From contig JBBIUB010000002.1 in assembly GCA_037440465.1 (NCBI GenBank), positions 9,705-73,704 of the forward strand: DNA of 64,000 nucleotides. Reading direction: 5' to 3'. The position numbers were made by a program, and so were the translations under genes. The notes beneath the pieces are model-generated. The model worked only from the letters and a program-made list of their open reading frames with translations, did no database searches and had not been told where the DNA came from. This document shows positions 3,453 through 62,132 of the stretch, in pieces. Every line of letters begins with the position of its first letter. Position 1 is the stretch's first letter. The stretch comes from Coprothermobacterota bacterium (lineage in GTDB: Bacteria > Coprothermobacterota > HKB111).

Positions 3453-3466
3453 ATCCAGCTCTCCTT

Positions 3467-6150: not shown

Positions 6151-6162
6151 AATTATTACCTC

Positions 6163-26109: not shown

Positions 26110-26185
26110 TGGTACCCCCAAGCGGATTCGAACCGCTGCCGCGGCCTTGAAAGGGCCGTGTCCTAGGCCTCTAGACGATGGGGGC
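26110..26185 (-). tRNA. tRNA-Glu (TTC)
   Basis: Reverse complement GCCCCCATCGTCTAGAGGCCTAGGACACGGCCCTTTCAAGGCCGCGGCAGCGGTTCGAATCCGCTTGGGGGTACCA gives a cloverleaf with anticodon TTC and a D-arm typical of tRNA-Glu. CCA is encoded. Confidence 0.9.
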
Positions 26186-26199
26186 ACAAAATTAATTAT

Positions 26200-26274
26200 A
26201 TGGTGGGCCCACCTGGACTTGAACCAGGAACCTTCCGGTTATGAGCCGGTGGCTCTGCCATTGAGCTATAGGCC
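26200..26274 (-). tRNA. tRNA-Met (CAT; elongator-type, tRNA-Ile2 not excluded)
   Basis: Reverse complement GGGCCTATAGCTCAATGGCAGAGCCACCGGCTCATAACCGG...TTCAAGTCCAGGTGGGCCCACCA; anticodon CAT; encoded CCA. Confidence 0.85.
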
Positions 26275-26286
26275 CACTATCAATAA

Positions 26287-26362
26287 ATGGCTGCTCGGGC
26301 AGGACTTGAACCTGCAACCAGACGGTTAACAGCCGCCCGCTCTACCAATTGAGCTACCGAGC
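26287..26362 (-). tRNA. tRNA-Asn (GTT)
   Basis: Reverse complement TGCTCGGTAGCTCAATTGGTAGAGCGGGCGGCTGTTAACCGTC...GGTTCAAGTCCTGCCCGAGCAGCCA; anticodon GTT. Confidence 0.9.
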
Positions 26363-26432
26363 AATCTTACTAAATATTATATCATATGCCTTTTAGTGAA
26401 TTGTCAATGGTTTAATACCTCATTAAGAATGT

Positions 26433-27255: not shown

Positions 27256-28035
27256 CTAACTGCTTCTTCTGATCTGTATTATTTCTGCAAGAATAGAAAT
27301 AGCTATTTCTGTTGGTGTTATAGCACCTATAGAAATACCAATTGGTGTCTTAACTTGAGATAGCTTATCTTCAGGAATCCCTGAGTTAGTGAGGTTATAT
27401 ATAATCTCTCTCGCTTTTTGACGACTGGCAATCATTCCCAAGTATTTCGGTAAAACGGGCTTCCGTAATATGATTTCTAATATAGATTGGTCAAAACCGT
27501 GACTCCGTGTTGCTATCACTATATACATTCTTTCATTGTCTATATCAAGGTTATGAGCTGTTACCATCATATCGCCATGAATAAAATTAACCTCAGAAGA
27601 GAAATGCTCATCAGTTAGGAGTTCTTTTCTATCATCAATGACTATTACCTTAAAGCCAAGATTAAGAGCTATTTTAGACACAGCTTGACCTATGTGACCA
27701 CTACCAAAGATATATAGCTTATCAATAAATCCCATAGGTTCAATAAATACTGCCATACTACCACCACATAACATACCCAGGCTCTCAAGAGCTATCTCTA
27801 AATACTTAGATTCTTTTAACTCTATACACTTAAAACTTTCTTCTATCACCCTGGATTCTATAGCTCCCCCTCCTACCGTTCCAGATGAACTGCCATCAGG
27901 GTAAATCAACATTTTAAAACCTGTTTTCCCTGGTGCGCCTTCAACCCCTCTTATTACTGTAGCCAAAGCAAAAGGAATCCCAGATTCAAGATTTCCAAGA
28001 ATCTCTTCATAAAGCCTTTTGTCATTTGCTTGCAT
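27256..28035 (-). CDS. XdhC/CoxI family molybdenum-hydroxylase accessory protein
   Basis: 259 aa; XdhC_CoxI N-domain and Rossmann-like C-domain (LYIFGSGHIGQAV). Confidence 0.8.
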   Translation of the reverse strand: MQANDKRLYEEILGNLESGIPFALATVIRGVEGAPGKTGFKMLIYPDGSSSGTVGGGAIESRVIEESFKCIELKESKYLEIALESLGMLCGGSMAVFIEPMGFIDKLYIFGSGHIGQAVSKIALNLGFKVIVIDDRKELLTDEHFSSEVNFIHGDMMVTAHNLDIDNERMYIVIATRSHGFDQSILEIILRKPVLPKYLGMIASRQKAREIIYNLTNSGIPEDKLSQVKTPIGISIGAITPTEIAISILAEIIQIRRSS

Positions 28036-28037
28036 TT

Positions 28038-28658
28038 CTAATTATCCCCTTTCTTGAAATTTATTAATCTTTCGTATTCAACTGGTGTATCCAGGTCCAT
28101 GAGAACCTTTTCATCTTGAACTTCTACTTCCACAATAAAATCAGAATGTCTGTTCAACAAATCTCTAAGTGTATCTTTCTCATTATCAAGAGAAAGAACC
28201 TCACTCCTGAGTTTGTTATTAAACAGTAACGGATGCCCTCTTCTTTTTTTAAAAACAGGGGCAACTATAAGCGAAGTTAAAGGAGAAAAAACATCACTAA
28301 GACTAACTAACCACTTTGACTGTATAAATGGTTGATCTCCCAGAATTACATAGAAACCATCAATATCTTCTCTTAATGCTCTAACTCCAGTCTGCACTGA
28401 AGAAAGCATTCCCTTTTTGTAAGAAGGGTTAAAGACAACCTTAATTCCCAACTCTTTAATCACTGGACCAAGAATGCTCAAAATAATATTTTTATCAAAA
28501 CCAAGAACTAAAATTATTTCTGAAATACCTGAATAGTATAATGTATTCAAAATCCTACTTCCAATTGGCTTGTTATCCCAGGGAAGAAGGATTTTATTCT
28601 TCCCCATTCGCGTTGATTTACCAGCAGCTAAAACTACTGCTCCTAAATTATTTAACAT
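28038..28658 (-). CDS. mocA: molybdenum cofactor cytidylyltransferase (MobA-like NTP transferase)
   Basis: 206 aa; GAVVLAAGKSTRMG nucleotide-binding loop. Confidence 0.8.
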   Translation of the reverse strand: MLNNLGAVVLAAGKSTRMGKNKILLPWDNKPIGSRILNTLYYSGISEIILVLGFDKNIILSILGPVIKELGIKVVFNPSYKKGMLSSVQTGVRALREDIDGFYVILGDQPFIQSKWLVSLSDVFSPLTSLIVAPVFKKRRGHPLLFNNKLRSEVLSLDNEKDTLRDLLNRHSDFIVEVEVQDEKVLMDLDTPVEYERLINFKKGDN

Positions 28659-28782
28659 AAATCCCCTTTTTTATGAGTCTCTTAACTATATGATATTAAA
28701 AGTGGTTTCATTAAAAATGCTAACACAAATTAACTACTCCCTTATAATACATAAAAAATACTGAAAGATTTCATATATAATC

Positions 28783-28813
28783 CAAAAAAATTGGCGGGAT
28801 TTTACTCCCGCCA
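28783..28813 (-). terminator. rho-independent terminator downstream of the permease gene
   Basis: On the minus strand, GGCGGGAGUAAAAUCCCGCC hairpin followed by AAUUUUUUU, 35 nt after the stop at 28850. Confidence 0.6.
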
Positions 28814-28849
28814 AATAATTATTTTAATAAAAGTTCATCCTAAATATTG

Positions 28850-30268
28850 TTAGGACTTAACTCCCCGCTCTTCCAGGGTACCAGGAATAAGGTTATCTAA
28901 AACTAAGCCACATAAAGCTCCAACAGCCATTCCGGTGCTTAGGAGCCGATTGAGAATGTCAGCAATCCACTGGGGGTCAAATGCTATGGGGTTATTTCCA
29001 ACCCACTGAGGAACCCCTAAACCCATGAGGAAAGCAAAACCAATAATTAATAAGTTCCTTTGAGAAGTAAGGTCGGCTCTTCCCAGAATCATGATTCCAA
29101 TAGCTCCAATTACGCCGAAGAGAGCAATATAAGCGCCACCAATGATAGGTGAGGGTATAGTAGCAATAAGAGCACCAAGTTTACCAATAAGGCTCATGAT
29201 TATCAAAAGAATTGCACCTGTTCCAACAACATACCTTGAAGCAACTCCTGTGATTCCTACAAGACCAATGTTTTCTGAATAACTGGTCGTACCAACGCCA
29301 CCGAAAATACCGCTAATCATGCAACCCAAGCCTTCTGAACCAATACCTCTATTTATCTTTTGTGGAGTTGGATCATCAAGTCCAGCAGCATAAGATATTG
29401 AGTGATAATCACCAAAAGATTCAATCATTGAAGCAAAATATGCTGCCAAAATAGCAAAGAAAAAGGTAATATCAAAGACTGGCCTACCATAACGGAATGG
29501 GATTGGCAAATTAACCCAGTTAGCGTCACCAATAGGAGCAAGGTTAATAAAAGCTGCATGCCCTTCTTTAAACACACCCATAAAAGTTAAGAGAAGGCAG
29601 ACAACATACATAAGAGCAATAGAGGATATTACAGATATAAGACGCATCCTTTCACCGAGTAACATGGAAAAAACAAAAATACCCGCTACAACAAGAATAG
29701 CAACAGGCCAGAAGCTCCCTGCGGTACCTACAGCCACAGGTGCTAGACCAAAACCAATCAGCATTATGGTCGGTCCAATAACTATAGGTGTGATAACTTT
29801 CCTTAAAAGTCCAATTAGACCACCATAGCCTACTACAAGCTCAACTAAGCTACCCGATATTAGAGCTCCAGAAATAGCTTGCATTACATAATTAACTCCC
29901 CGTTCTTTGGTGGCTGCAACAATAGCCATAACTGCAGGTATAAAAGAAAAGCTCGAACCCTGAACAATGGGTAACCCACTTCCTATTAAAGATAATTGTA
30001 GTAAAGTGGCAATACCCATAACCAGATAAACAGAGTTTACAAAAACACCAATTTGGACTTTATCCATTCCAATAGCAGGACCAAAAATTAAGGGGACAAG
30101 TGTAGTAGCTCCAAACAAAGTTAAAACATGCTGAAACCCACCTACTATCATAAAGCTGAGAGGTGGTTTGTAATCTACTGGCATAATAACTTTCCTATTA
30201 GGCATATAAAACCTCCTTAAATAATGGATTAAAAAATAATTAAGCCTATTTCTCTTCCCTTTTCTCAC
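28850..30268 (-). CDS. NCS2 family nucleobase (xanthine/uracil) permease
   Basis: 472 aa polytopic; NCS2 signature region. 23-nt overlap with the xdh molybdopterin subunit. Confidence 0.85.
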   Translation of the reverse strand: MRKGKRNRLNYFLIHYLRRFYMPNRKVIMPVDYKPPLSFMIVGGFQHVLTLFGATTLVPLIFGPAIGMDKVQIGVFVNSVYLVMGIATLLQLSLIGSGLPIVQGSSFSFIPAVMAIVAATKERGVNYVMQAISGALISGSLVELVVGYGGLIGLLRKVITPIVIGPTIMLIGFGLAPVAVGTAGSFWPVAILVVAGIFVFSMLLGERMRLISVISSIALMYVVCLLLTFMGVFKEGHAAFINLAPIGDANWVNLPIPFRYGRPVFDITFFFAILAAYFASMIESFGDYHSISYAAGLDDPTPQKINRGIGSEGLGCMISGIFGGVGTTSYSENIGLVGITGVASRYVVGTGAILLIIMSLIGKLGALIATIPSPIIGGAYIALFGVIGAIGIMILGRADLTSQRNLLIIGFAFLMGLGVPQWVGNNPIAFDPQWIADILNRLLSTGMAVGALCGLVLDNLIPGTLEERGVKS

Positions 30269-32642
30269 CTCCTTTTTCTTTTATTGCACTTAAGACTCCC
30301 TCTGGACTTAAAGGAAGTCTCTTTATGCGAACACCAATGGCATCATATACTGCATTAGCTATAGCCGCTGCTGTTGGTATCATTGGATGTTCTCCAATTC
30401 CTCGAGCTCCAAAAGGTCCATCATGTTCTGGAGCTTCAATAATATTAGAAACGATATCTGAAGGCACATCAAGTGAAGTAGCTATTTTATAGTCAGTGAA
30501 AGAAGGGTTTAGTGTTTTTCCATGCTGGTCAAATTTGAGTTCTTCAAAAAGAGCTGAACTTAATCCCTGAACAAGCCCCCCTTCCATCTGCCTTTTTACC
30601 TGTAGAGGATTAATTGCTTTACCAACATCAAAAGCAGAGGCTGCTTTGAGAACTTTTATTACTCCAGTTTCTGTATCTACCTCCACTTCTACTGCTTGTG
30701 CGCCAGTAGTAAAATGAACCACTGGTTTTCTCCCCTGACCAGTCTCAGGATCTACAGGAGTAACATCTGGTGGAACAAACATGCCATGCCCCATAATCGG
30801 ACCTCCTTCAAGCTTTCCATCAGGCATCCTTATCCCATATATTGCCACATTCTTAAGTGCTATCTTCTTTGTAGGGTCACTAAGACAAACAACATGACCA
30901 TTAATAAGATACAGGTCTTTGCTATTAACCTCCCAGGATTTACTCAGGAGTGCAAAAACCTGATCTTTTATATCCTGACAAGCTTTAAGAAGAGCATTAC
31001 CAGTGGACCAGGTTAGACGACTGGCTACAGTTTGCCATTCATATGGATTTCTATCTGTGTCTGGAGATAATACCTTTATCTTCTCGGGGTGGATGGTTAA
31101 TGCTTCAGCAGCTATCTGGGTTAAAACAGTATGATACCCTTGTCCTATTTCCATTCCAGAAGCAAGGATATTTATAGAACCATCTTCATTGAATTTAACA
31201 AAGACTGAAGAGCCTGCATCAGGTGGCATAGCTGGTGCCTTCCACATAGCAGCAATACCTTTTCCTCTCACCTTAACAGGACTTTTACATACTTCTTTCT
31301 CCTTCATGTTTAAGGTGGTAGCCACAGTTAGAATGCAATCCGAGAGTCCTGTGGGGTGCATTTTATTGCCTGTAAGGGTTTCTGCTCCTCCTCTTAGGGC
31401 ATTCAACAAGCGAAACTCAACAGGGTCCATGCCAAGCTTAACTGCTGCTTCATCCATATGAGATTCAATGGCAAAGTGAATCTCGGACATACCAAATCCT
31501 CTATAAGGACCTCCTACAGGATGGTTTGTATAAATGCAATATGTATCAGATTTAACATTGGGAATCTCATATGGGCCAGAAGAAGAATAACCAGATGCCC
31601 TTGTTATATTCACTCCATATTCAGTGTAAGCACCTCCAGCCCAATAGTATTTAACCTCCAGAGCTTGGATTTTACCATCTTTTTTTACCCCCATTTTTAC
31701 GAAAGCCTTGAGGGCCTGTCTGACGAATGTACCAAAAAACTCTTCTTCCCTGGTCATCCTGAGTTTCACAGGGTATCCAAGAACTTTCATTGCTAAGGGA
31801 ACAAGACAAGCTTCTATGGTAACTCCTGCTTTAGAACCAAATCCTCCACCGAGATAAGGGGTTATTACTCTCACTTTACTTTGAGGTAATCCAAAAGCCT
31901 GAGCTATAAGATTCCTTTGAGCAAAGGGGGATTGGGAAGAAGTCCAAAGGGTTACATTTCTTCTAAAATCAACTTCTGCGATAGCTACATGGGTTTCTAT
32001 AGTAGAGTGCTGTATATGGGGAACTTGATAGGAATCTTCAATTATTATGTCAGAATTCTTAAAACCCTCTTCCAAATTCCCTTTTCTCACCTTGAAATGG
32101 TTACTGATATTAGTACCAGGTACTGGATAGATAAAGTCAGAATGAGGATATCTCCCTAAGTCTGGATGAATTATTGGAGCTTCAGGCCTTGCTCCCAATA
32201 CTGGGTCAAAAACTGTTGGAAGTTCCTTATACTCTACCTCTATAAGCTCTAATGCTTCCTCTGCAATCTCTTCAGAGATAGCAGCCACTCCAGCTACTGG
32301 CTCACCAATAAATCTAACCCGGTCAACTGCGTAAAGGTTCCTATCCTTAAGATAAAGACCAATTAAATATGGAAAATCAGTGCCAGTAACTACTGCCTTG
32401 ACTCCAGGTAGGCTTAGGGCTCTCTTTGTGTCGATATTGATTATCTTACCGTGGGAAACAGGACTTCTTTTTAGTTTAGCGTGAAGAAGTTTGGGTCCAA
32501 ACTGTAAGTCATCAGTATATTTTGCTTCACCAGTAACTTTTTCCCAAGCATCTACCCTGGGTATGTCTTTTCCAATCCAGGAAAATTCTTCTTTAACTAT
32601 CTCTAATTCAATTGTTTCTTCTTTTATTTTATCGGAAGACAT
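30246..32642 (-). CDS. xanthine dehydrogenase family molybdopterin-binding subunit
   Basis: 798 aa; Ald_Xan_dh a/b hammerhead plus MoCo-binding domains (GGGFGSK, catalytic E in GEP). Confidence 0.9.
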   Translation of the reverse strand: MSSDKIKEETIELEIVKEEFSWIGKDIPRVDAWEKVTGEAKYTDDLQFGPKLLHAKLKRSPVSHGKIINIDTKRALSLPGVKAVVTGTDFPYLIGLYLKDRNLYAVDRVRFIGEPVAGVAAISEEIAEEALELIEVEYKELPTVFDPVLGARPEAPIIHPDLGRYPHSDFIYPVPGTNISNHFKVRKGNLEEGFKNSDIIIEDSYQVPHIQHSTIETHVAIAEVDFRRNVTLWTSSQSPFAQRNLIAQAFGLPQSKVRVITPYLGGGFGSKAGVTIEACLVPLAMKVLGYPVKLRMTREEEFFGTFVRQALKAFVKMGVKKDGKIQALEVKYYWAGGAYTEYGVNITRASGYSSSGPYEIPNVKSDTYCIYTNHPVGGPYRGFGMSEIHFAIESHMDEAAVKLGMDPVEFRLLNALRGGAETLTGNKMHPTGLSDCILTVATTLNMKEKEVCKSPVKVRGKGIAAMWKAPAMPPDAGSSVFVKFNEDGSINILASGMEIGQGYHTVLTQIAAEALTIHPEKIKVLSPDTDRNPYEWQTVASRLTWSTGNALLKACQDIKDQVFALLSKSWEVNSKDLYLINGHVVCLSDPTKKIALKNVAIYGIRMPDGKLEGGPIMGHGMFVPPDVTPVDPETGQGRKPVVHFTTGAQAVEVEVDTETGVIKVLKAASAFDVGKAINPLQVKRQMEGGLVQGLSSALFEELKFDQHGKTLNPSFTDYKIATSLDVPSDIVSNIIEAPEHDGPFGARGIGEHPMIPTAAAIANAVYDAIGVRIKRLPLSPEGVLSAIKEKGGEKREEK

Positions 32643-32651
32643 TTTCCACCC

Positions 32652-33122
32652 CTACTTAGAAAGTATGTTTGCAGCATGACGAGTTGCTTCTACAATAGCT
32701 ACATATCCTGTACAACGACATATATTGCCAGCAATAGTTTCTTGGATTTCCTCTTCTGAAGGGTCAGGATTTCTCTTCAAGAGAACTGATAAAGATAAAA
32801 TCATCCCTGGTGTGCAAAAACCACACTGAACAGCACCTTTTTCAATAAAAGCCTCCTGAAGAGGGTGCAATTTTCCATCTTTTACCAATCCTTCTACGGT
32901 AATTATTCTTTTCCCATCTATCTCTATAGCCAGAACCAGACATGAGTTTACTGGTTCATCGTTCAAAATAACGGTACAGGCTCCACATTCTCCTTTACCA
33001 CAACCATATTTAGGGCTTGTAATTCCAATCTTATTTCGTAATACTTCTAAAAGAGTCTCCCATGGAAAAACCTCAAGATTGTAGTTTTCTCCATTAACCA
33101 TGAAATGAATACTTTTTCTCAT
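32652..33122 (-). CDS. xanthine dehydrogenase family [2Fe-2S] subunit
   Basis: Two 2Fe-2S motifs (CGKGECGACTV; CGFCTPG). Start moved to the internal ATG (MRKSIHFMVNG), which overlaps the upstream stop as ATGA. Confidence 0.85.
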   Translation of the reverse strand: MRKSIHFMVNGENYNLEVFPWETLLEVLRNKIGITSPKYGCGKGECGACTVILNDEPVNSCLVLAIEIDGKRIITVEGLVKDGKLHPLQEAFIEKGAVQCGFCTPGMILSLSVLLKRNPDPSEEEIQETIAGNICRCTGYVAIVEATRHAANILSK

Positions 33123-33997
33123 ATAACTACCTCTCTCAAAAGCAATAACTTCTCCCATGCTTTTAATAAAGCTCTTTTTGTGAATACTTTGCACATCTCC
33201 AGACGATATTGCCTGGAAGAACGCACATCATCTATAGGTGATACTTCTTCAAGAATCAGGGGAAGTCCTTCTTCAACTAATTCTGAGGTCAAAACTTTAT
33301 GACGCAGATAATTTTCAATCTTTGTAGCTCTAATTGGAGTAGGAGCAACAGCCCCCAAAGCAACTCTGTATTCAAAGCCGGAGGGAGTATCAAGAACTAA
33401 AGCTGCAACTCCAACTACTGCTAAATCTACTGCGGCTCTTCTTCCAAGCTTCAGGTATATGGACATATGGGAATATCTTGGATGTGAAATAAATATTTCT
33501 TTAACTAATTCGCCTGGTTTCAAAACATTCAATCGAGGTCCTTTAATGAAAGAAGACAATTTTATTCTTCTCTCCCCATCAAGTCCAATCGTTAAAACCT
33601 CACTATCATAGCATAGAAGAATTGGAACCATATCAGCTGAAGGTACAGAGCTAACAAGATTTCCAGTAAGGGTCCCTCTTGCACGAACCTGATATGAACC
33701 AACTGATGAAGCAGCTTCCTTTAATCCAGGAAAATAATTGCCAATATTTAAAGAGTTAGATATTTCGTTTAAAGTTGTTAAGCTTCCAATGTGTATTCCT
33801 TTATCATTATAAATAAGAGTTTTTAACTCGGAGATTTCTTTTATGTCTATAACATATCTGGGTTGTTCAAGCTTTTCTTTCATCCTGACTATCAGGTCTG
33901 TCCCACCATTTAAGTAAGCTCCACCTTCTCCAAGTTTTCTGGTTATATCAAGGGCTTCTCTAATGTTAGAAGGTCTATAATAATCAAATTCTTTCAC
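33119..33997 (-). CDS. xanthine dehydrogenase family FAD-binding subunit
   Basis: 292 aa CO-dehydrogenase flavoprotein-like subunit (AYLNGGTDL). Confidence 0.85.
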   Translation of the reverse strand: MKEFDYYRPSNIREALDITRKLGEGGAYLNGGTDLIVRMKEKLEQPRYVIDIKEISELKTLIYNDKGIHIGSLTTLNEISNSLNIGNYFPGLKEAASSVGSYQVRARGTLTGNLVSSVPSADMVPILLCYDSEVLTIGLDGERRIKLSSFIKGPRLNVLKPGELVKEIFISHPRYSHMSIYLKLGRRAAVDLAVVGVAALVLDTPSGFEYRVALGAVAPTPIRATKIENYLRHKVLTSELVEEGLPLILEEVSPIDDVRSSRQYRLEMCKVFTKRALLKAWEKLLLLREVVI

Positions 33998-34014
33998 AGG
34001 CTTCCCTACCTTTT

Positions 34015-34842
34015 TTATTCCTTCTTAACAAAAGCTACCAATCGACAGAAGGCAGCTTCACCTCCAACAAACCTCCAGGGGAAGCAACCAACATAAACCC
34101 TTTGGTTAAGGATTTTGTCTATTTCTCCTCCAATATTCTCAAGATGGAAAATACCATACTTGAAAAGACCATAATGGGTAGTTTGATAATCATCCTCAGG
34201 AAATATCTCCTCAAGAGTCTTCCCCAGCTTTTTTTCAGCTTCTTTAGCTAAATCTGGTCTTACTTTTCTTATTACTGTATTCATTGGGTGGTCGGTTGAA
34301 CCAGCATCTATTGCCATCCAGGAAATCTTTCTCTCAAGGACAAATCTGGTGAATTCTGCTGTGGGACCCGGATGTTTAATAAAATATTTGGTTTCATCTG
34401 GAACACATTCTCCATACCAGTTACCGGGATAATATTTATGGTAACCGGTATTGATTATAAGAATATCTCCTTCTTTAATTTTTATCCCAGATTTCTTCTC
34501 CCATTCTTCAAAATGCTCAGGTGAATATATTTCATAATCACCAATACCAAACTGTGATAAATCAACTACCACTGCTGTACCAAAAAGCTTGTTAATAGGT
34601 ATTTGAGCAACATCTTGACCATTGGTAATGAAATGAAGTGGGGCATCAATATGGGTACCTACATGAAGAGTAGTTGAAATATGTTGACCTCCTACTCTAT
34701 CAAAAGCTACTCTTTTTATCCACTTTATTATTGGTCCTTCATAGGTGGCAAATGCTGGTGTGTGTACACCCCAATCTTGTGTGAGGTCAAGTAGCTTTAC
34801 TCCTTTTAAGTCCTCAAATTCTTCCATATATTCCTCCTTCAT
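34015..34842 (-). CDS. cyclase family protein (kynurenine formamidase-like metal amidohydrolase)
   Basis: HVGTHIDAPLHF signature of the putative-cyclase family. Confidence 0.75.
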   Translation of the reverse strand: MKEEYMEEFEDLKGVKLLDLTQDWGVHTPAFATYEGPIIKWIKRVAFDRVGGQHISTTLHVGTHIDAPLHFITNGQDVAQIPINKLFGTAVVVDLSQFGIGDYEIYSPEHFEEWEKKSGIKIKEGDILIINTGYHKYYPGNWYGECVPDETKYFIKHPGPTAEFTRFVLERKISWMAIDAGSTDHPMNTVIRKVRPDLAKEAEKKLGKTLEEIFPEDDYQTTHYGLFKYGIFHLENIGGEIDKILNQRVYVGCFPWRFVGGEAAFCRLVAFVKKE

Positions 34843-35087
34843 ATTTAAATATTTAAGGTTCTTCTCAAATTATGTCGTTAAACAGGGTTCAAGGGTACAA
34901 GAATTCAAGGATTCGAGGGTTCAAGTGAAAATCTTAAAAATACAACTTCTTGACTGCTTGAACCTTTCAGATAAGACCTCTGCCTAACCTTTAATTCTTT
35001 GTAGTTATTATGCATTTTACTGGACTCCTTGACTCCTTAGCCCCTTGAATACTTTCAATTCATAATCATTTCAGTTTAACAACTAAT

Positions 35088-36479
35088 TTAAGGTGATCCA
35101 TATTTTCTTACAAAAGCCCACCCTGCCATTTCAAAGGCTGTGATAGGTAAACGGATAATTCCAGCACCCACCTGCCCAACTCCTGGATTTTTGTGAGCTA
35201 CTCCAGTATTCAAAATAGGAGTAATGCCAGTCTTTATAACTTTTAATATATCAATACCGAGAGGTGTTCCCCTGAAATTTAAATAGGGGATAGTAAATAC
35301 CTCGTTTAATGAATGAGTAATCTCATACATATCTAAATTATGGTCCATAGCATCTTTAGGTGTACCACCAATAAACTGCACTATAGCAGGAGCAGAAGCA
35401 AGTGCAAATCCACCCAGGCCTAAAGTTTCCATAATTGCAGAATCTCCCAGGTCCGGGTTAGCATCTTCCTCAGTATATCCTGGAAAGAAAAGAACATCAG
35501 GGATAGCTGCTTCAGATACAAACCACTCCTTATCCAAACCACTCACCCTAATGCCAAAATCCGTTCCATTTCGGGCTATCACATTAACAATTGATGAATA
35601 ATCAACTCTTTCAGCAGGTTCCAGGCAGGATTTAGAAGCGCCCATAGCAAGATTCAAAAAGAAGTGGTCGTTACTATCAATAAACTTCAATAATTCCTCT
35701 CCCTCTGCGACACTTCTGGATACATGAAGAATAGAGGGTGCTATGATTCTGAAAAATAGAGATGTGGCAGCTCTATTTCTGTTATGTAGCTCATCACCCA
35801 TGTGCAAAGCTTGGCTCATAACATTCTTAAGGTTAATATCCCCCAACTCATCTATTGCTTTTGACAGAACTGGGTAAAGAACATTCTCCATCCACTTTAA
35901 CCTTTCAATTACCTCCTGGCTATAAGCACCGAACCTCAATGCTTTACCCAGGCCTTCATTTTGAGTAACATACACCATATTTCCAAAAGTATTGTTTTTA
36001 ATTATAAAGACAGGCATAGATGGTGAGATTACTCCAGCCATTGGACCTACAGCATGATAATGATGAGTTGGTTCAAAGCGAATATCCCCTGAAGAAGCCA
36101 TCTCCCAGGCGTCTTTTTCTTTAGAAGTCCATCCCTCATAAAGAATAGCACCTATTATTGCTCCTTTCAAAGGTCCACACATTCTATCCCAGGTAATTGG
36201 TGGACCAGCATGAAGAAGGAATTTACCTCCAAAGCCTGGTATTATTTCCGATGCTCTACCCATACCCCAAAGATTGGGTTTTGCTGAAAGGATAATATCA
36301 ATAACCTTATTATTAGCTTCCTCAATTATCTTAATAGGTAATTTTCTGAGGTTATTAAGAAGTTCTTTATCAAGAGATGGTGGTCTAAAATCTACCTCAA
36401 CTACTTCAATGCCCTGGCTTTCTAAATCTCTGGCAAAAGCCTTAAGACCTATATTTATAACTTTAAGCTTGCTCCACAT
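35088..36479 (-). CDS. DUF1116 protein (YlbE/AllG-like oxamate carbamoyltransferase subunit)
   Basis: 463 aa; co-located with FdrA and DUF2877 genes, as in the E. coli fdrA-ylbE-ylbF cluster. Confidence 0.6.
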   Translation of the reverse strand: MWSKLKVINIGLKAFARDLESQGIEVVEVDFRPPSLDKELLNNLRKLPIKIIEEANNKVIDIILSAKPNLWGMGRASEIIPGFGGKFLLHAGPPITWDRMCGPLKGAIIGAILYEGWTSKEKDAWEMASSGDIRFEPTHHYHAVGPMAGVISPSMPVFIIKNNTFGNMVYVTQNEGLGKALRFGAYSQEVIERLKWMENVLYPVLSKAIDELGDINLKNVMSQALHMGDELHNRNRAATSLFFRIIAPSILHVSRSVAEGEELLKFIDSNDHFFLNLAMGASKSCLEPAERVDYSSIVNVIARNGTDFGIRVSGLDKEWFVSEAAIPDVLFFPGYTEEDANPDLGDSAIMETLGLGGFALASAPAIVQFIGGTPKDAMDHNLDMYEITHSLNEVFTIPYLNFRGTPLGIDILKVIKTGITPILNTGVAHKNPGVGQVGAGIIRLPITAFEMAGWAFVRKYGSP

Positions 36480-38013
36480 TTAAACTCCTTATAACCTTGC
36501 CTGCAAAAAAACTAACTTCTCTATTACTCTTGAAACATAGTGCACCTGCTTCTTCCAATGCTTTTTCTATCATATTCTTGTTCTGAATATCTTCGTGAGT
36601 ACCACATATATGAACTACAGGCAAGACTTTTCCCTTACATTCATAAATTAGGGGTAAGATTTCTTTCAGAGGTTCCATGGGTGCGCCATAACCAAGTATA
36701 AGGTCAAAAAAGATGATAGCTACATCTTCATCTTTAATCTCCCTGGATATTCTGTTTACTCGAAAAGTGTAATCAATAATAGGATGAAGGCGTCCAACAG
36801 TAAACTCGTCTTCACCGAGATCAATAATAGTATTATTAATACTTTTAACCCCCTGAATTTTGAACTCTTTAGAAAGTGGGGTATTAGAATAAACTTCTCC
36901 AATAAGACCTTTTAAAACAAGAAGTGCTTCATAAGCCAGTGTTCCGCCTGTAAAAAGACCCCTTAAATATCTTCTTTTACCAGAAATCTTCTTAGCCTCC
37001 TCAAAAGCTCTGGAAGAGATTTCATCCTCTCTTTTTTTCAAATAATCCTTTACATTTGTGGGGTTTTCCTTTCGTGTTAATGTTAGAGATAATAATGCTG
37101 CCTCTTCTAAAGACTCAGACCAGAAAAGATTAGAAGGAAGATCTGGTGGAATCGTATCTCCCAAAAAACAAACAACTACAGGTTTTTTTACTTTTCCTGC
37201 CTGTTCAAAAATCATGGAAGATACTTCTGGGTCGGGAGGTTTAGATATAAGCATAACAACTTCTGTATTATTATCAGAGGAAAGGAATTGGAGACCCATG
37301 AGAGTAGTAATGCCACCTACCTTAATATTTAAATCTCTACCACCCGTACCAATAGCGTGAGAAATCCCACCACTATAATCAGAGATGATGGAAGATACTT
37401 CCTGAATTCCTGTACCAGCTGCAGCTACTATTCCTATAGAACCTTTCCTTATCTTATTTGAAAATGCTATGCCAACCCCTCCTATAATGGCAGTACCAGC
37501 ATCTGGACCCATTAAAAAGAGTCTTCTATCAAAAGCCATTTTTTTTAATTTAGCTTCTTCATCCAGAGGAACATGATCTGAGAAAAGAAATACATTTAAT
37601 CCTTTTTCAAGTAATTCATGAGTAACCTCGTAAGCAAAACGCCCTGATACCGAAACAATAGCCAGATTTAAGTCTGGTATAGCCTTCAAAGCCGAACTTA
37701 TACTCCTTGGCTTGTGTATACTTTCTTCTTCTCTTGATTTTTTTCTTATTAAGAGTGAACACCCTTCATTAAGTGCTTTGGAAGTTGATTCTTTATCTTC
37801 TCCTTTTACTACCAGTATTAAATCCGAAGGTTTAGCCTTTTTGAATTCTTCAAGGAACATACCTGCTTCCTCTAAGAGTTTTACATTACTTTCTGTACCC
37901 ATATACAGAGCAGCTTCTATTACTCCAGGCATGGAAGATACCTGCTTGGATATAAGCATTAAAGTAGCGGAATCAAAGTAACTACCCTGTTTAATTATTC
38001 CTTCTACCCACAT
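36463..38013 (-). CDS. fdrA: FdrA family protein (AllF-like; succinyl-CoA synthetase-like fold)
   Basis: 516 aa; N-terminal KQGSYFDSATLM and CoA-binding/ligase-like domains. Confidence 0.7.
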   Translation of the reverse strand: MWVEGIIKQGSYFDSATLMLISKQVSSMPGVIEAALYMGTESNVKLLEEAGMFLEEFKKAKPSDLILVVKGEDKESTSKALNEGCSLLIRKKSREEESIHKPRSISSALKAIPDLNLAIVSVSGRFAYEVTHELLEKGLNVFLFSDHVPLDEEAKLKKMAFDRRLFLMGPDAGTAIIGGVGIAFSNKIRKGSIGIVAAAGTGIQEVSSIISDYSGGISHAIGTGGRDLNIKVGGITTLMGLQFLSSDNNTEVVMLISKPPDPEVSSMIFEQAGKVKKPVVVCFLGDTIPPDLPSNLFWSESLEEAALLSLTLTRKENPTNVKDYLKKREDEISSRAFEEAKKISGKRRYLRGLFTGGTLAYEALLVLKGLIGEVYSNTPLSKEFKIQGVKSINNTIIDLGEDEFTVGRLHPIIDYTFRVNRISREIKDEDVAIIFFDLILGYGAPMEPLKEILPLIYECKGKVLPVVHICGTHEDIQNKNMIEKALEEAGALCFKSNREVSFFAGKVIRSLNVEQA

Positions 38014-38878
38014 AATTCCTCACAAAGCATAAGCTAAAATAAAATCCTGTTAGAAAGTCAGCACCAGACGAGTGACCTATTTTTATAACCTGGAGAATAC
38101 TTGTCTCCAGAGTAGTTATATCATATGTAAATAAATTATTCACCATAACTCTGACAAATCTTCCAGCTAATCCAGCATAGGCTTCTTCAAGGAAATGGTA
38201 ACTAATTTTATTAGTCAGATTTTTAGCTAACGTAAGGATAGTTTGGCTTAAAGAAGAAAATTCATAAAAAAATATATTAAAAGAAAGGCTAAAGATACGA
38301 AGTCCCAGGATAAAACCTGACAGAAAATCATCACCTGATGGAGTTAAGCCTTCTCCTAACCCCAGTAGCAAAGTTACTCCAGTTTTCTGTTGCTTTTTAT
38401 CTAATTTAAAGAGGTGAACTAACCCAGATGATGCTTTTTTTAGTATATGAGAATTCTCTTCTTTTAGAAGTAGCGGTGTCAGGCCTCCAGGATAAGCATC
38501 TCTAAGAAGAATAAGCCTTATAAGTTCAAGGCCCTTTTCAAGATCTGAAAGAGGTTTTTCTTGAATATCAACTCTTGGATTATAAAAGGAATAATTACTA
38601 CATTCCAACTTTTCATAATTGGTAATCAAAAAACCATTCTCTCTGATGAAATGATCGCCAACCTTGTAATTTAAAAATGGTTTATCTTGAATTTCGCAGT
38701 TCAAAAGAAAACTTCGAGCACCGTCAGAGTAGTTTCTAGCTCTCACTTCCACTAATTTCTCATCCGAAGTCTCCAGATATAAAACACCTGGAAATACACT
38801 GTAAACAGTTGAGTAACCACCAACAGGTAAAAGATCTAGTGCTTCCCGGCTAACTGATACTACTCTTTTCAGACTCAC
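37991..38878 (-). CDS. DUF2877 protein (YlbF/AllH-like)
   Basis: 295 aa; third member of the FdrA/DUF1116/DUF2877 triad. Confidence 0.5.
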   Translation of the reverse strand: MSLKRVVSVSREALDLLPVGGYSTVYSVFPGVLYLETSDEKLVEVRARNYSDGARSFLLNCEIQDKPFLNYKVGDHFIRENGFLITNYEKLECSNYSFYNPRVDIQEKPLSDLEKGLELIRLILLRDAYPGGLTPLLLKEENSHILKKASSGLVHLFKLDKKQQKTGVTLLLGLGEGLTPSGDDFLSGFILGLRIFSLSFNIFFYEFSSLSQTILTLAKNLTNKISYHFLEEAYAGLAGRFVRVMVNNLFTYDITTLETSILQVIKIGHSSGADFLTGFYFSLCFVRNYVGRRNN

Positions 38879-39750
38879 TCAGGGTTCCTTCTTTTATATG
38901 TAGGGAAAGGACTTTTCGCTGACTTAAGGATAAGTTTTCCATAAGCATCCAGATTACGGTCTTCAAGATGATTATAAACCATCGGTGCCTTAGAACCATA
39001 TGAAACATATCTCAAAGGATCAGGATCCAGTTCACAAGCAATGACATCCTCCCCTCCTCTTGCTTGAGCTAACTTTTGAGCAATAGGGTTTACTATCATG
39101 CTGTGTCCGTAGTGATAATTACCTGAAGCATCAAGGCCTACTGCGTTTGTGGCTAATAAATATATGTGATTATCAAATGCCCTTGCTCTATTTGTAAGAT
39201 CCCATATTTCAAAGCTTCTTAGAAATGCTGAGGGTCTTACTATTATTTCTGCTCCTTGCAAAGCCATAATTCTTGCAAGTTCTGGGAAATCACCATCATA
39301 ACAAATAATAATACCTATTTTTGCTAAGCGAGTATTAAAAACAGGTACCTGAAAGCCTGCTTTTACATTTTTTTCTGTTGGGAAAGGATGGGTTTTTCTG
39401 TAAGTACCAACTATTCTGCCATTATCATCAATTAAAACTGCAGAATTATAAACTTCCTCTTTGTTATGCCCTTTTTCATAAAAAGGAAGGACAATATGCA
39501 CTCGGAGACTTTTACACATATCACAAATTTCATCAGTTAGATTGCCAGGAATATCAGTAGCTAATTCGTAAAGCTCACTTATTCCAAGATCAGGAGCGAA
39601 AGAGGTTACTATAGTCTCAGGAAGTACTATTAAATCTGCATTAAATTCATCCTTCACTTTTCTAACAGAGCTCTTTATTTTGATTATGTTCTCTGTAATC
39701 CTAAGAGGCAATGAATTCATCTGTATACAGGCAGCTATAAATCTTTCCAT
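38875..39750 (-). CDS. carbon-nitrogen hydrolase family amidase/nitrilase
   Basis: E-K-C triad context: LIVLPE, YRKTHPF, GIIICYD. Confidence 0.8.
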   Translation of the reverse strand: MERFIAACIQMNSLPLRITENIIKIKSSVRKVKDEFNADLIVLPETIVTSFAPDLGISELYELATDIPGNLTDEICDMCKSLRVHIVLPFYEKGHNKEEVYNSAVLIDDNGRIVGTYRKTHPFPTEKNVKAGFQVPVFNTRLAKIGIIICYDGDFPELARIMALQGAEIIVRPSAFLRSFEIWDLTNRARAFDNHIYLLATNAVGLDASGNYHYGHSMIVNPIAQKLAQARGGEDVIACELDPDPLRYVSYGSKAPMVYNHLEDRNLDAYGKLILKSAKSPFPTYKRRNPE

Positions 39751-40934
39751 CCTACTACCCCCTTCTCTTTGAGTTCACTTAAGTATTCATCATCAAAACC
39801 CAAAAGATTAGATAGAGCTTCACGAGTATGCTGACCAAGATAAGGAGCTGGCATCCGGGGACCAGTCTGAGTTTGAGAAAGCTTGAAGGGAGACCCAACA
39901 GTTTTATAAGGTCCCACTAATGAATGTTCCATTTCTACTATCATCTGACGAGAAATCACCTGTTGGTCTTTAACAACTTCCTTTATAGTATTTATAGGAC
40001 CGTACGGTATACCATTTTTCTCAAAAATGTTACTCCATTCCTTATATGTCTTTTTCTGGAAAACCTTCTCCAATTCCGGAATTAAAATGTGTTTATTCAA
40101 TGTACGTTGGTAGTTATTGGAGAATAAAAGGTTCTTTGTCAGATCTTCTCTCCCAATTACCTGGCAGAATTCCAGCCAGAGTTTTTCGCTCCCAAGAGGA
40201 AGTATTATGTAATTGTCTTTTGTCTTAAAGGCTTGAAAAGGGGTTATAGAAGGATGAGAGGTTCCTAAAGGTTCTGGTACTACACCTTCAATATAATATC
40301 TGGTTATAGCATTCTCTAAAAGATACACCATTCCATCCAGCATGCCATAATCTAACCTTTGTCCCAAACCTGTTTTTTCTTTATAATAAAGTGCGCCCAG
40401 GATTCCTATGGCTGCATGGTGACCTGCGATTAAATCACCAATGGAGATACCTACCCTTACTGGTTGACCGTTAGGTTCTCCTGTAATACTCATTAAACCA
40501 CTTGTTCCTTGTACAACCATGTCATATGAAGGTTTATCCTTATAGGGTCCCGTATGACCAAAACCTGAAATAGAAGCATAAATAATCCTGGGATTTTCCT
40601 TTCTTATTTCCTCATAGCCAAGACCTAATTTTTCTAAAGTGCCAGGACGGAAGTTCTCAACAATCACATCAGATATACGGCTTAATCTCTTTACTATATT
40701 AACTCCTATAACTGTTTTAATGTTTACTACAACACTTTTTTTATTACGATTAATGCTCATAAAATAAGCACTTTCATCTTTAATAAAAGGACCGTAGGTG
40801 CGAGCACCATCTCCTCCTGGTGGTTCAATCTTAATAACTTCTGCTCCCATATCACCGAGAATCATCGTACAGAATGGACCTGCCAGGATATGACTTAAAT
40901 CAAGTATTCTCAAGCCATACAGGGTTCCAGTCAT
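39735..40934 (-). CDS. CaiB/BaiF family (class III) CoA-transferase
   Basis: N-terminal LRILDLSHILAGPFCTMILGDMGAEVIKIE, typical of the family. Confidence 0.85.
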   Translation of the reverse strand: MTGTLYGLRILDLSHILAGPFCTMILGDMGAEVIKIEPPGGDGARTYGPFIKDESAYFMSINRNKKSVVVNIKTVIGVNIVKRLSRISDVIVENFRPGTLEKLGLGYEEIRKENPRIIYASISGFGHTGPYKDKPSYDMVVQGTSGLMSITGEPNGQPVRVGISIGDLIAGHHAAIGILGALYYKEKTGLGQRLDYGMLDGMVYLLENAITRYYIEGVVPEPLGTSHPSITPFQAFKTKDNYIILPLGSEKLWLEFCQVIGREDLTKNLLFSNNYQRTLNKHILIPELEKVFQKKTYKEWSNIFEKNGIPYGPINTIKEVVKDQQVISRQMIVEMEHSLVGPYKTVGSPFKLSQTQTGPRMPAPYLGQHTREALSNLLGFDDEYLSELKEKGVVGWKDL

Positions 40935-41192
40935 TAATTACCTCCATTCAAAATAATTATATAATAACAAAGGTTGATATAAATAAATCGTTAAAATCGT
41001 TAAATTAGAAAGTAAGAATATACTCATACTATCATAAAATAATAATCAACTATTATTTTTATTGGAATATTCAAAGTTATTTTAACAGGATATAAAAAAT
41101 CTTCTAACGATGTTCCCACTATTTACCTTTCAACAAGATAATAATATGCTAAAATTCATTTGAGTAAATCATAAACAAGGAAGGTATATCCA

Positions 41193-62125: not shown

Positions 62126-62132
62126 TTATACC

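Follow-up and report, generated by a model that had tools for sequence, protein, structure and literature searches.

We propose, with a probability of roughly 0.6, that an operon in a 64,000-nucleotide stretch of Coprothermobacterota DNA (the window) encodes an anaerobic oxidative breakdown of pyrimidines, in which uracil would be converted through barbiturate to ureidomalonate, ureidomalonate to carbamoyl phosphate and malonamate, and malonamate through malonate to malonyl-CoA. The basis of every proposed step is homology and gene neighbourhood. An earlier note on this DNA had read the same genes as a possible route from xanthine to oxamate, which is probably wrong, or to a CoA-activated intermediate, a guess that fits the evidence. 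It had also stated that this is not a described pathway, and indeed a full-text literature search found no paper on the gene combination or on the route proposed here, which is probably an undescribed variant of the oxidative pyrimidine pathway.

The cluster comprises 12 co-directional genes spanning positions 27256-40934 (Table 1). All of the open reading frames are present, and in a profile search 12 of 12 products matched the families that the earlier note had named, FdrA, DUF1116 and DUF2877 among them, well above the Pfam cut-offs. The first gene of the operon, encoding the CoA-transferase, is separated by a 259-nt AT-rich gap from a divergent LonC-like gene, and the strong terminator-like hairpin at the other end of the main gene series suggests that the MocA and XdhC genes form a small transcription unit of their own. 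Two genes probably start later than their longest open reading frames would indicate. The permease probably starts at ATG 30205, which is preceded by a GGAGG-like site and gives a protein of the same length as in the relative L001; for the [2Fe-2S] subunit the likely start is ATG 33122, which has a GGAGG-like GAGAGAGG site upstream and makes the gene overlap the FAD gene by 4 nt (the L001 counterpart encodes 158 aa). The cluster had been called an island, a term that we would drop, as its GC content is that of its flanks, no mobility genes were seen, and synteny with L001 (71% identical) extends into the flanks (LonC-like protease, baeRF, ABC transporter, methyltransferase). A regulator, a cytosine deaminase and a malonate or malonyl-CoA decarboxylase are absent from the window, which, like the absence of carbamate kinase, counts against the proposed route. 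Searches of the window by tblastn with E. coli AllB, AllC, AllD, AllE, AllK and YahI gave no match, with a working positive control, and so bear out the earlier observation that it lacks genes for allantoinase, ureidoglycolate handling and carbamate kinase.

Table 1. Features of the cluster, in the order of transcription (window positions)
Feature	Coordinates	Strand	Remarks
Promoter-like site TTTATA-16-TATAAT	40956..40983	-	upstream of CoA-transferase gene; 10/12 consensus matches, consensus scan only
Class-III (CaiB/Frc-type) CoA-transferase; proposed malonate:acyl-CoA CoA-transferase	39735..40934	-	PF02515 (CoA_transf_3), 431 bits, full length
Nitrilase-superfamily amidase; proposed malonamate amidohydrolase	38875..39750	-	PF00795 (CN_hydrolase), 175 bits
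DUF2877/AllH/YahE-like triad subunit	37991..38878	-	PF11392, 79 bits, residues 171-282
FdrA/AllF/YahF-like triad subunit, succinyl-CoA-synthetase-alpha-like	36463..38013	-	PF00549 + PF02629 (Ligase_CoA + CoA_binding)
DUF1116/AllG/YahG-like triad subunit	35088..36479	-	PF06545, 307 bits
Cyclase-family metal-dependent amidohydrolase; proposed barbiturate ring-opening hydrolase	34015..34842	-	PF04199, 132 bits
FAD subunit, Mo hydroxylase	33119..33997	-	PF00941 + PF03450 (FAD_binding_5/CO_deh_flav_C)
[2Fe-2S] subunit, Mo hydroxylase	32652..33122	-	PF01799 + PF00111 (Fer2_2/Fer2); start revised from 33194
Molybdopterin subunit; proposed uracil/thymine dehydrogenase (C6 hydroxylase)	30246..32642	-	PF01315/PF02738/PF20256 (Ald_Xan_dh_C/MoCoBD_1/MoCoBD_2)
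NCS2 nucleobase permease	28850..30205	-	PF00860 (Xan_ur_permease), 272 bits; start revised from 30268
Terminator-like hairpin 3' of permease gene	28791..28814	-	9-bp stem, 6 G-C pairs, then TTTTTTT; consensus match only
MocA-like molybdenum cofactor cytidylyltransferase	28038..28658	-	PF12804 (NTP_transf_3), 121 bits; TIGR03310 MocA/YgfJ, 156 bits (cut-off 186)
XdhC-family molybdenum cofactor insertion/maturation factor	27256..28035	-	PF02625 + PF13478 (XdhC_CoxI/XdhC_C); NF045664 XdhC_rel_AOR, 213 bits, and TIGR02964, 112 bits, both below cut-off

In the proposed route the NCS2 permease would import uracil and/or thymine, with cytosine entering after deamination in some relatives, and the three-subunit molybdenum hydroxylase, matured by MocA and XdhC, would hydroxylate C6 to give barbiturate (or 5-methylbarbiturate). 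The cyclase-family metallo-amidohydrolase, in place of the unrelated AtzD-type barbiturase, would then open the ring to ureidomalonate (N-malonylurea), which the FdrA/DUF1116/DUF2877 triad would cleave with phosphate to carbamoyl phosphate and malonamate. A carbamate kinase encoded outside the window would make ATP from the carbamoyl phosphate, the CN-hydrolase would deamidate malonamate to malonate, and the CoA-transferase would yield malonyl-CoA, although cleavage, deamidation and CoA transfer may occur in another order. Lastly, a decarboxylase encoded outside the window, but within the cluster in relatives, would convert malonyl-CoA to acetyl-CoA.

Features of the individual hydrolases and of the transferase are consistent with these roles. 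The cyclase-family protein carries the metal motif HxGTHxDxPxH at residues 60-70 (H60 to H70), and among solved proteins it is related to kynurenine formamidase and to isatin hydrolase, a member of the cyclase family that hydrolyses a cyclic amide. The CN-hydrolase has the motifs LPE45, RK119TH and C150YD (Glu45/Lys119/Cys150), and among solved proteins it is closest to formamidase, aliphatic amidase and the Nit2/Nit3 omega-amidases, which act on monoamides of dicarboxylates. At other loci an amidase-signature enzyme stands in for it, a non-orthologous displacement; the best solved relative of that enzyme is malonamidase E2 (154 bits), malonamate amidase having been predicted before the search. 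The top NCBIfam matches of the CoA-transferase, all below cut-off, are without exception to enzymes of dicarboxylates (succinate-glutarate, oxalate, mesaconate), and its orthologues, found in 13 of 80 homologous loci, mostly adjoin an amidase gene.

We compared about 80 homologous loci, 33 of them well-flanked (8 kb or more on each side). The core, consisting of the triad, the cyclase and the molybdenum hydroxylase, is conserved in at least ten named lineages. The DUF1116/AllG subunit is 50-71% identical to cluster-linked orthologues of many phyla, in lineages that include Thermotogaceae, Cloacimonadota, Elusimicrobia, Verrucomicrobiota, Chloroflexota, Bacillota, Halanaerobiales, Acidobacteriota, Bacteroidota, Spirochaetota and others. 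The cyclase and the molybdenum subunit each occur in 29/33 well-flanked loci, and a cyclase orthologue lies at most 1.5 kb downstream of AllG in 44 of the 64 loci with enough sequence. Since the same core gene order is found again in distant lineages, the arrangement, judged by this comparison, is not due to chance. A second common "tail" downstream of the core, in which C8, an unknown protein of ~230 aa, occurs with thiolase-like and DUF35 proteins, is left unexplained by the pyrimidine model.

The genes that accompany the core in relatives (accessory permease, cytosine-deaminase-like, decarboxylase, carbamate kinase and amidase genes) argue for a pyrimidine route and not for one from xanthine through oxalurate to oxamate. 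Malonate is implied as a product by genes for malonate decarboxylase (Mdc), in a full set, or for an Mmd-type (methyl)malonyl-CoA decarboxylase that pumps Na+. Locus L030 encodes a malonate decarboxylase with alpha (887 bits, cut-off 789), acyl carrier protein (94, cut-off 84) and gamma (271, cut-off 237) components, together with MdcG, MdcB and a Na+-pump beta subunit; MdcA homologues are also present in L040 and L063, and the clusters of L043, L069 and L075 contain an MmdA-type carboxyltransferase (901 bits, cut-off 999) with biotin carrier, OadG-like and Na+-pump beta genes. Carbamoyl phosphate is likewise implied by a carbamate kinase gene that flanks several loci (6 by clustering, 5 by tblastn), that of L069 scoring 433 bits against an arcC cut-off of 358. 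Cytosine-deaminase-like genes occur after the cyclase gene in L088 (394 bits, cut-off 438) and in the L002 cluster (280 bits). The related loci thus suggest that the operon degrades uracil or thymine to malonyl-CoA, with ATP made via carbamoyl phosphate.

The permease of the window is of ambiguous substrate type by BLAST, with RutG (130 bits), UraA (127) and XanQ (125) about equal; among NCBIfam models it scores best on the xanthine permease subfamily pbuX (263 bits, cut-off 414), and its TM10 motif SYSENIG has Glu, as in UraA and RutG, not the Gln of XanQ. The permeases of most other homologous clusters are clearly UraA/RutG-like and not XanQ-like: that of L085 is 52% identical to UraA (436 bits, versus 73 to XanQ), that of L032 is 46% identical to RutG, and those of L030, L040, L066 and L069 show 41-43% identity to UraA. 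We note that cluster permeases are nevertheless spread over several NCS2 subfamilies, that the identity of the substrate is read only from neighbouring permease, deaminase and decarboxylase genes, and that an MmdA-type decarboxylase would suit both malonyl-CoA and the methylmalonyl-CoA derived from thymine. The same enzyme logic might therefore act on another ureide ring (thymine only, a modified or 5-substituted uracil, 4,6-dihydroxypyrimidine, orotate or a hydantoin-type compound), with an N-acylurea still being made and phosphorolysed by the triad and a dicarboxylate being CoA-activated. We regard this as unlikely, however, as an MdcA above its equivalog cut-off specifies malonate, the UraA-like permeases of L032 and L085 retain Glu241, His245 and Glu290, and the presence of cytosine-deaminase-like genes suggests that the pyrimidines are unmodified.

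A purine route that begins with xanthine dehydrogenase and leads to an oxamate carbamoyltransferase of the AllFGH type, which converts oxalurate to oxamate and carbamoyl phosphate, with oxamate passing through oxalate to oxalyl-CoA, appears quite improbable. It would account for the membership of the triad in the AllF, AllG and AllH Pfam families, the 318 bits of the CoA-transferase on the CoA:oxalate transferase model, the pbuX match of the permease and the second molybdenum hydroxylase adjoining the L002 cluster. Some link to purines is possible, given PucR-family regulators in some relatives and the nearby selenium-dependent molybdenum cofactor and reductive-urate genes in L066 and L072. 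The molybdopterin subunit, however, lies under all NCBIfam equivalog cut-offs (XdhA 535 versus 916, PucD 438 versus 784), the molybdenum subunits are also far below the XdhB cut-off, and the FAD subunit is below every equivalog cut-off. The signature GGGFGxKAG / YRGFG / GEH, common to all molybdopterin-subunit orthologues of the clusters, differs from the active-site motifs of E. coli XdhA and XdhD, whose Gln is Ala in 45/45 cluster orthologues; xanthine is thus not favoured as the substrate. No route known to us leads from urate to oxalurate unless allantoinase, AllC, AllD and AllE take part, and homologues of these are absent from the window and from the 80 loci; nor was oxalyl-CoA decarboxylase seen among recurrent neighbours, and biotin-type or MdcA-type malonate and malonyl-CoA decarboxylases would make no sense for oxalate.

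A molybdenum enzyme acting on a CoA thioester, like 4-hydroxybenzoyl-CoA reductase, with the CoA-transferase acting first and the remaining genes processing a CoA-bound heteroaromatic acid (e.g. nicotinate-like or hydroxypyrimidine carboxylate), would suit a CoA-transferase gene at the head of the operon and a large subunit whose best solved relative (alpha subunit, 368 bits) and best NCBIfam model (559 bits) are both HcrA, but is very improbable, as 559 is far below the cut-off of 995, the FAD subunit (292 aa) does not fit HcrB, the beta model (107 versus 405), and the CoA-transferase, present in only 7/33 well-flanked loci against 29/33 for the molybdenum enzyme, lies distally in relatives, beside the amidase.

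For the cleavage of ureidomalonate in the pyrimidine route, AllFGH of E. coli is the model; ureidomalonate is the CH2-extended homologue of oxalurate, the AllFGH substrate, which is one carbon shorter. The FdrA-like subunit scores 428.6 bits on the NCBIfam FdrA subfamily (cut-off 433), and across 69 homologues its His410 and some 60 further residues reach a conservation of at least 97%. Identities to AllFGH are 34% (AllF), 44% (AllG) and 30% (AllH), and those to the uncharacterised E. coli paralogue YahEFG are 40% (YahF), 44% (YahG) and 33% (YahE), so that by identity the triad is equidistant from the two, which counts against the purine route. AllFGH has been found by experiment to be an N-acylurea phosphorylase, converting oxalurate and Pi to carbamoyl phosphate and oxamate (PMC11326118), and in gene order and sizes the triad resembles the Yah set.

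We propose, at a probability of about 0.6, that the twelve-gene operon encodes an anaerobic oxidative route for pyrimidines in which uracil or thymine would be converted by way of barbiturate, ureidomalonate, malonamate and malonate to malonyl-CoA. In this model, which is drawn from gene content, uracil or thymine would be taken up by the permease and hydroxylated at C6 by the molybdenum (Mo) enzyme to give barbiturate, whose ring would be opened to ureidomalonate by the cyclase-family hydrolase. Isatin hydrolase, also of the cyclase family, provides a precedent for the hydrolysis of a cyclic amide. The DUF2877, FdrA-like and DUF1116 proteins (the triad) would then cleave ureidomalonate, an N-acylurea, by phosphorolysis to carbamoyl phosphate and malonamate, in direct analogy to the reaction of AllFGH with oxalurate. 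Carbamate kinase would use the carbamoyl phosphate to make ATP, the amidase would hydrolyse malonamate to malonate, and the CoA-transferase would form malonyl-CoA, to be decarboxylated to acetyl-CoA; the data do not settle the order in which the amidase, CoA-transferase and triad would act. We found no homologues of AllB, AllC, AllD, AllE or AllK in the window, in keeping with the earlier note, which had reported allantoin genes and carbamate kinase to be missing, and no genes for malonate or malonyl-CoA decarboxylase are present in it. The genes for the ATP-forming step and for the final decarboxylation must thus lie elsewhere.

The twelve ORFs follow one another with short gaps or overlaps in the transcription order class III CoA-transferase, CN-hydrolase, DUF2877/AllH, FdrA-like protein, DUF1116/AllG, cyclase-family hydrolase, FAD, 2Fe-2S and Mo-pterin subunits, NCS2 permease, MocA-like cytidylyltransferase and XdhC-like maturation factor, and Pfam and NCBIfam bear out every one of the gene families that the earlier note had named. 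Complete motifs are present in the CN-hydrolase (catalytic E45/K119/C150) and in the cyclase-family protein (metal-binding HxGTHxDxPxH), and better start sites were found for the 2Fe-2S subunit and permease genes. A promoter-like sequence lies 5' of the first gene and a strong terminator-like hairpin lies 3' of the permease gene, so that MocA and XdhC may be a transcription unit of their own. Rfam matched no riboswitch or other known RNA in the operon, the only hits in the window being tRNAs. We note that a 245-nt spacer separates the DUF1116 and cyclase genes and contains five tandem CTTGAAYY octamers, which base-pair with CAAGGRGY repeats lying upstream of them to form a long but imperfect hairpin (-54 kcal/mol, z = -2.6; 6 matches to the repeat pattern versus 0.5 expected). 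In L001, a locus from a 71%-identical relative, the spacer is absent and the two genes abut. It may have arisen by insertion of a small repeat element, or may act in mRNA processing or stability.

Coordinates of the features discussed, in the window and in homologous loci
Feature	Sequence	Positions	Strand
Operon	window	27256-40934	minus
Mo hydroxylase genes	window	30246-33997	minus
Better start, permease gene	window	30205	minus
Better start, 2Fe-2S subunit gene	window	33122	minus
Cyclase-family hydrolase gene	window	34015-34842	minus
Spacer	window	34843-35087	minus
CTTGAAYY octamers	window	34888-34925	minus
Triad genes	window	35088-38878	minus
LonC-like protease and baeRF genes	window	41193-44794	plus; minus
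Rnf-type operon	window	2619-7461	
ValRS gene	window	11064-13745	
Class III aminotransferase gene	window	22831-24183	
panB	window	24229-25062	
310-aa ORF	window	25072-26004	minus
Three tRNA genes	window	26113-26363	
NuoF-like and CdhD/AcsD-like genes	window	59800-63497	
Second Mo hydroxylase and amidohydrolase genes	L002	1-3693	
C8 example	L059	12315-14517	
C8 example	L010	12202-12939	
C8 example	L043	7518-8246	
yqeB and yqeC	L066	4380-7406	
yqeB and yqeC	L072	871-3361	
yahD-yahJ, E. coli K-12 (L008)	NC_000913	335280-342507	

Scanning one genome for each GTDB species gave 593 confirmed matches; 80 loci were kept, and context look-ups were added. A core gene set, [DUF2877]-FdrA-DUF1116-cyclase plus FAD-FeS-Mo, was found in Thermotogaceae, Cloacimonadota, Elusimicrobiota, Verrucomicrobiota, Chloroflexota, Bacillota, Halanaerobiales, Acidobacteriota, Bacteroidota, Spirochaetota, Bdellovibrionota, a Synergistota-like Acetomicrobium bin and others. 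Among the 33 loci flanked on each side by 8 kb or more, the cyclase and the Mo subunit each occur in 29 and the FdrA-like protein in 31; these counts rest on tblastn, as ORF-based calling in high-GC loci gave spurious antisense ORFs (clusters C9, C14, C17 and C28). Judged by its gene neighbourhoods, the cluster is widespread and internally coherent. Its recurrent neighbours in relatives are genes related to pyrimidines and malonate. The NCS2 permeases encoded alongside the core resemble UraA/RutG (up to 52% identity to UraA, with bit scores 3- to 6-fold above those for XanQ) and some retain the uracil-binding residues Glu241, His245 and Glu290; the permease of the window is of a divergent type that scores equally against RutG, UraA and XanQ and has a TM10 motif with the UraA-type Glu. 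Cytosine-deaminase-like genes lie within the cluster in two loci (L088 and L002), and carbamate kinase is found in the flanks of several, with one copy (L069) above the arcC cut-off. In Halanaerobiales loci the cluster itself includes a Na+-translocating (methyl)malonyl-CoA decarboxylase of the Mmd type, one locus (L030) has a complete malonate decarboxylase set with several subunits above equivalog cut-offs, and two others (L040 and L063) have MdcA homologues. In many loci an amidase-signature enzyme takes the place of the CN-hydrolase, and its closest solved relative is malonamidase E2 (a moderate 154 bits); malonamate hydrolysis had been predicted beforehand. The CN-hydrolase of the window itself resembles short-chain amidases and omega-amidases. 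On balance, if narrowly, we favour the view that the cluster represents a hitherto undescribed, widespread module for pyrimidine fermentation in anaerobes both cultured and uncultured, in which a Mo hydroxylase, a cyclase 'barbiturase' and an ATP-yielding, ureidomalonate-specific triad would be combined with the decarboxylation of CoA- or ACP-bound malonate, coupled in some lineages to Na+ pumping. Oceanirhabdus sp. W0125-5 (L059) is one of the cultured carriers.

A family of proteins of about 230 aa, C8, is present in 20 of the 80 loci, often followed by thiolase-like and DUF35/zinc-ribbon proteins, and hardly ever occurs together with either amidase. Sister loci of Halanaerobiales have it where the pair of CoA-transferase and CN-hydrolase would otherwise be. 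This alternative tail, the second common one, does not fit the model. C8 has no match among Pfam, NCBIfam or PDB profiles. To regard its RGLRIGA motif as GNAT-like is a guess, and that C8 might turn malonamate straight into malonyl-CoA is speculation.

The earlier note had taken the Mo hydroxylase for a xanthine dehydrogenase within a purine route. Three adjacent genes do carry the Mo-pterin, FAD and 2x[2Fe-2S] Pfam domains of an XDH-type subunit set, and the three-subunit build and the MocA- and XdhC-type maturation genes are shared with E. coli XdhABC and Bacillus subtilis PucABCDE. Nevertheless, the Mo subunits fall far under all the curated NCBIfam equivalog cut-offs for XdhA, PucD, XdhB, HcrA, CODH and aldehyde oxidoreductases: the large subunit scores 535 against a cut-off of 916 for XdhA (NF007426), 551 against 780 for NF043082 and 438 against 784 for PucD, and the score for XdhB (TIGR02965) is 298 against 850. 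Among solved structures the large subunit is closest to 4-hydroxybenzoyl-CoA reductase, with a modest score of 368 bits; the window subunits differ from this enzyme in scoring below the cut-offs for HcrA (559 versus 995) and HcrC (171 versus 258) and in matching HcrB only in two fragments (107 versus 405), with the extra Fe-S insertion specific to HcrB not found. In an alignment that included E. coli XdhA and XdhD, the window's large subunit and all 45 cluster-linked orthologues proved to have a private signature, GGGFGxKAG / YRGFG / GEH, that retains the catalytic Glu in GEH and the Arg in YRGFG. The residue after GGGFGxK, which we take to correspond to Glu802 of bovine XDH, is Ala in the window protein and in 45 of 45 orthologues, whereas it is Gln in both E. 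coli proteins (GGGFGNKQD in XdhA). Given the scores below cut-off, the exchange of Gln for Ala and the absence of purine-catabolic genes among the window ORFs scanned, we do not retain the assignment as xanthine dehydrogenase, and consider the enzyme a candidate uracil/thymine dehydrogenase. We also note that the Acetomicrobium-like locus L002 has, just upstream of the cluster, a second, two-gene Mo hydroxylase with the motif GGGFGGKSD, unlike the cluster type, together with a cytosine-deaminase-like amidohydrolase, and that a divergent gene for a PucR-family regulator lies between these genes and the cluster.

PucR-family regulators are found near some homologous clusters, and reductive-urate genes lie near those of an Alkaliphilus MAG (L066) and Clostridium bowmanii (L072). 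In both of these loci YqeB and YqeC, which serve selenium-dependent maturation of the Mo cofactor and score above equivalog cut-offs, adjoin the cluster; in C. bowmanii they stand beside a diaminopropionate ammonia-lyase gene and a dihydropyrimidinase-like gene of the reductive urate pathway. In the window, the Mo-cofactor genes are limited to those for MocA and XdhC. Selenium may be required by some versions of the hydroxylase, and because of these regulators and neighbours a link to purines stays conceivable.

The triad genes are adjacent and overlapping, and their products belong, as the first reading had it, to the FdrA (Ligase_CoA/CoA_binding, 87+30 bits), DUF1116 (AllG, PF06545, 307 bits) and DUF2877 (AllH, PF11392, 79 bits) families. 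The FdrA-like protein scores 428.6 bits against a cut-off of 433 in the NCBIfam FdrA subfamily model, and the other two subunits match no NCBIfam model. That the triad is an orthologue of the AllFGH oxamate carbamoyltransferase does not hold: identities are 34/44/30% to E. coli AllF/G/H and 40/44/33% to YahF/G/E, and gene order and subunit sizes are Yah-like. Since these identities are low and AllG orthologues linked to such clusters in other phyla share 50-71% identity with that of the window, the triad is, by its sequence relationships, a third, well-conserved subfamily distinct from AllFGH. AllC, AllD and AllE homologues are found in none of the 80 homologous loci.

The reductive urate pathway and nicotinate-type fermentation were rejected, their signature genes being missing from the conserved gene set. 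A mobile island was likewise rejected, in view of composition and conserved flanks: the cluster had been called an island, a term left unsupported by uniform GC in the window and by flanks syntenic in L001. On one side lies a divergent pair, made up of a LonC-like AAA+/Lon protease (801 aa) and a convergently encoded eRF1-like protein of the bacterial type (baeRF family 10/5, 400 aa), and this pair borders the operon in L001 as well; on the other lie a methyltransferase and three tRNA genes. These tRNA genes are upstream of a 310-aa ORF without Pfam or NCBIfam match, itself directly upstream of panB and a class III aminotransferase gene. Elsewhere, the window has the genes of an ordinary strict-anaerobe chromosome, with ValRS, IspG, RpsB, a complete Rnf-type operon (RnfC/D/G/E/A/B-like) and, at the opposite end from it, a NuoF-like flavoprotein and a CdhD/AcsD-like corrinoid Fe-S protein. 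The Rnf, NuoF-like and CdhD/AcsD-like genes are markers of a strictly anaerobic, ferredoxin-based and possibly acetogenic metabolism. ValRS is 64% identical to that of a candidate division WS2 MAG, 48-49% to those of Bacillota and below 50% to any named one, and the source organism is akin to candidate division WS2.

Pyrimidine breakdown is usually credited to the reductive (Pyd) or Rut pathways. To our knowledge the oxidative barbiturate route is limited to a few aerobic actinomycetes, and we are aware of no gene or sequence assigned to its first enzyme, EC 1.17.99.4. Open-access papers and bioRxiv preprints yielded no description of the cluster, in agreement with the view that this is not a described pathway, though subscription journals could hold one. 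If our model holds, the Mo hydroxylase would supply genes for EC 1.17.99.4, pyrimidines would have a third anaerobic option, and many anaerobic lineages would have an oxidative route that yields ATP from carbamoyl phosphate, some of them also gaining a sodium gradient from decarboxylation of (methyl)malonyl-CoA or malonate. The recently solved AllFGH enzyme would become one of a family of N-acylurea phosphorylases with differing substrates, and there would be a first functional lead both for E. coli yahEFG-yahI-yahJ and for C8, which would replace the pair of amidase and CoA-transferase. Under the model, specific roles would also go to several large families whose present annotation is merely generic (DUF1116, DUF2877, 'putative cyclase' and 'xanthine dehydrogenase family protein').

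The cluster differs from both AllFGH-dependent allantoin fermentation and the reductive urate pathway (PMC12507026). E. coli AllFGH, also called oxamic transcarbamylase, which cleaves oxalurate by phosphorolysis to oxamate and carbamoyl phosphate, consists of the same three families (PMC11326118); the reaction type would be alike, giving carbamoyl phosphate and an amide, and AllFGH is coupled to carbamate kinase, as in relatives of the window cluster. Its gene order, however, is F-G-H rather than H-F-G, its subunit sizes are unlike, and its substrate is oxalurate where ours would be ureidomalonate; the window triad has genes for a Mo hydroxylase and a cyclase-family hydrolase as its partners, with no allantoin genes or allK nearby. 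A survey from 2025 reports that AllFGHK homologues adjoin biuret hydrolase in nitrifiers (PMC12625717), which fits the triad as a modular N-acylurea phosphorylase with several substrates. E. coli YahEFG has the gene order of the window and near-identical sizes (287/515/472 versus 295/516/463 aa), and its bit scores to the window triad are slightly above those of AllFGH, although identity is only 33-44%. In E. coli K-12, yahEFG lies beside yahI (carbamate kinase-like) and yahJ (cytosine-deaminase-like amidohydrolase) but the locus lacks genes for a Mo hydroxylase, cyclase, amidase or CoA-transferase. Because accessory genes of these two kinds are also recruited by some relatives of the window cluster, a pyrimidine-derived N-acylurea may, by analogy, be processed by the yah locus too. 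The reductive uric-acid cluster XdhD-YgfK-SsnA-YgeWXY-HyuA resembles ours in pursuing anaerobic nucleobase catabolism around an XDH-family enzyme, with ring-opening amidohydrolases, a carbamoyltransferase and carbamate kinase (PMC12507026). YgfK, SsnA, YgeW, YgeX and YgeY are absent here, and its OTCase-fold carbamoyltransferase and pyruvate end product contrast with an FdrA-type enzyme and, as proposed, malonyl-CoA. Malonamidase E2 of Bradyrhizobium japonicum (PDB 1OCK and others) converts malonamate to malonate and NH3, the step we propose, but the amidase of the window is a member of the nitrilase superfamily, to which malonamidase E2 is unrelated.

The aerobic oxidative pyrimidine pathway of Rhodococcus and Mycobacterium comprises uracil/thymine dehydrogenase (EC 1.17.99.4), barbiturase (EC 3.5.2.1) and ureidomalonase (EC 3.5.1.95). 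The latter two enzymes are named in PMC4051656 and PMC3758960. Barbiturate, ureidomalonate and the end product malonate would be common to both routes; for malonate, the indirect support comes from the malonate decarboxylase and Mmd-type decarboxylase genes of homologous loci. No AtzD/TrzD-type barbiturase (cyanuric-acid-hydrolase family) was matched among the scanned ORFs of the operon or window, and the non-homologous cyclase-family hydrolase, at a conserved position, would replace it. The aerobic pathway hydrolyses the ureido group to urea, whereas the window route would cleave it by energy-conserving phosphorolysis, would add malonamate, an amidase and a CoA-transferase, and would operate in hosts that are strict anaerobes. 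The predicted chemistry thus resembles that of the aerobic pathway, with a non-homologous ring opening and a phosphorolytic cleavage of the ureide.
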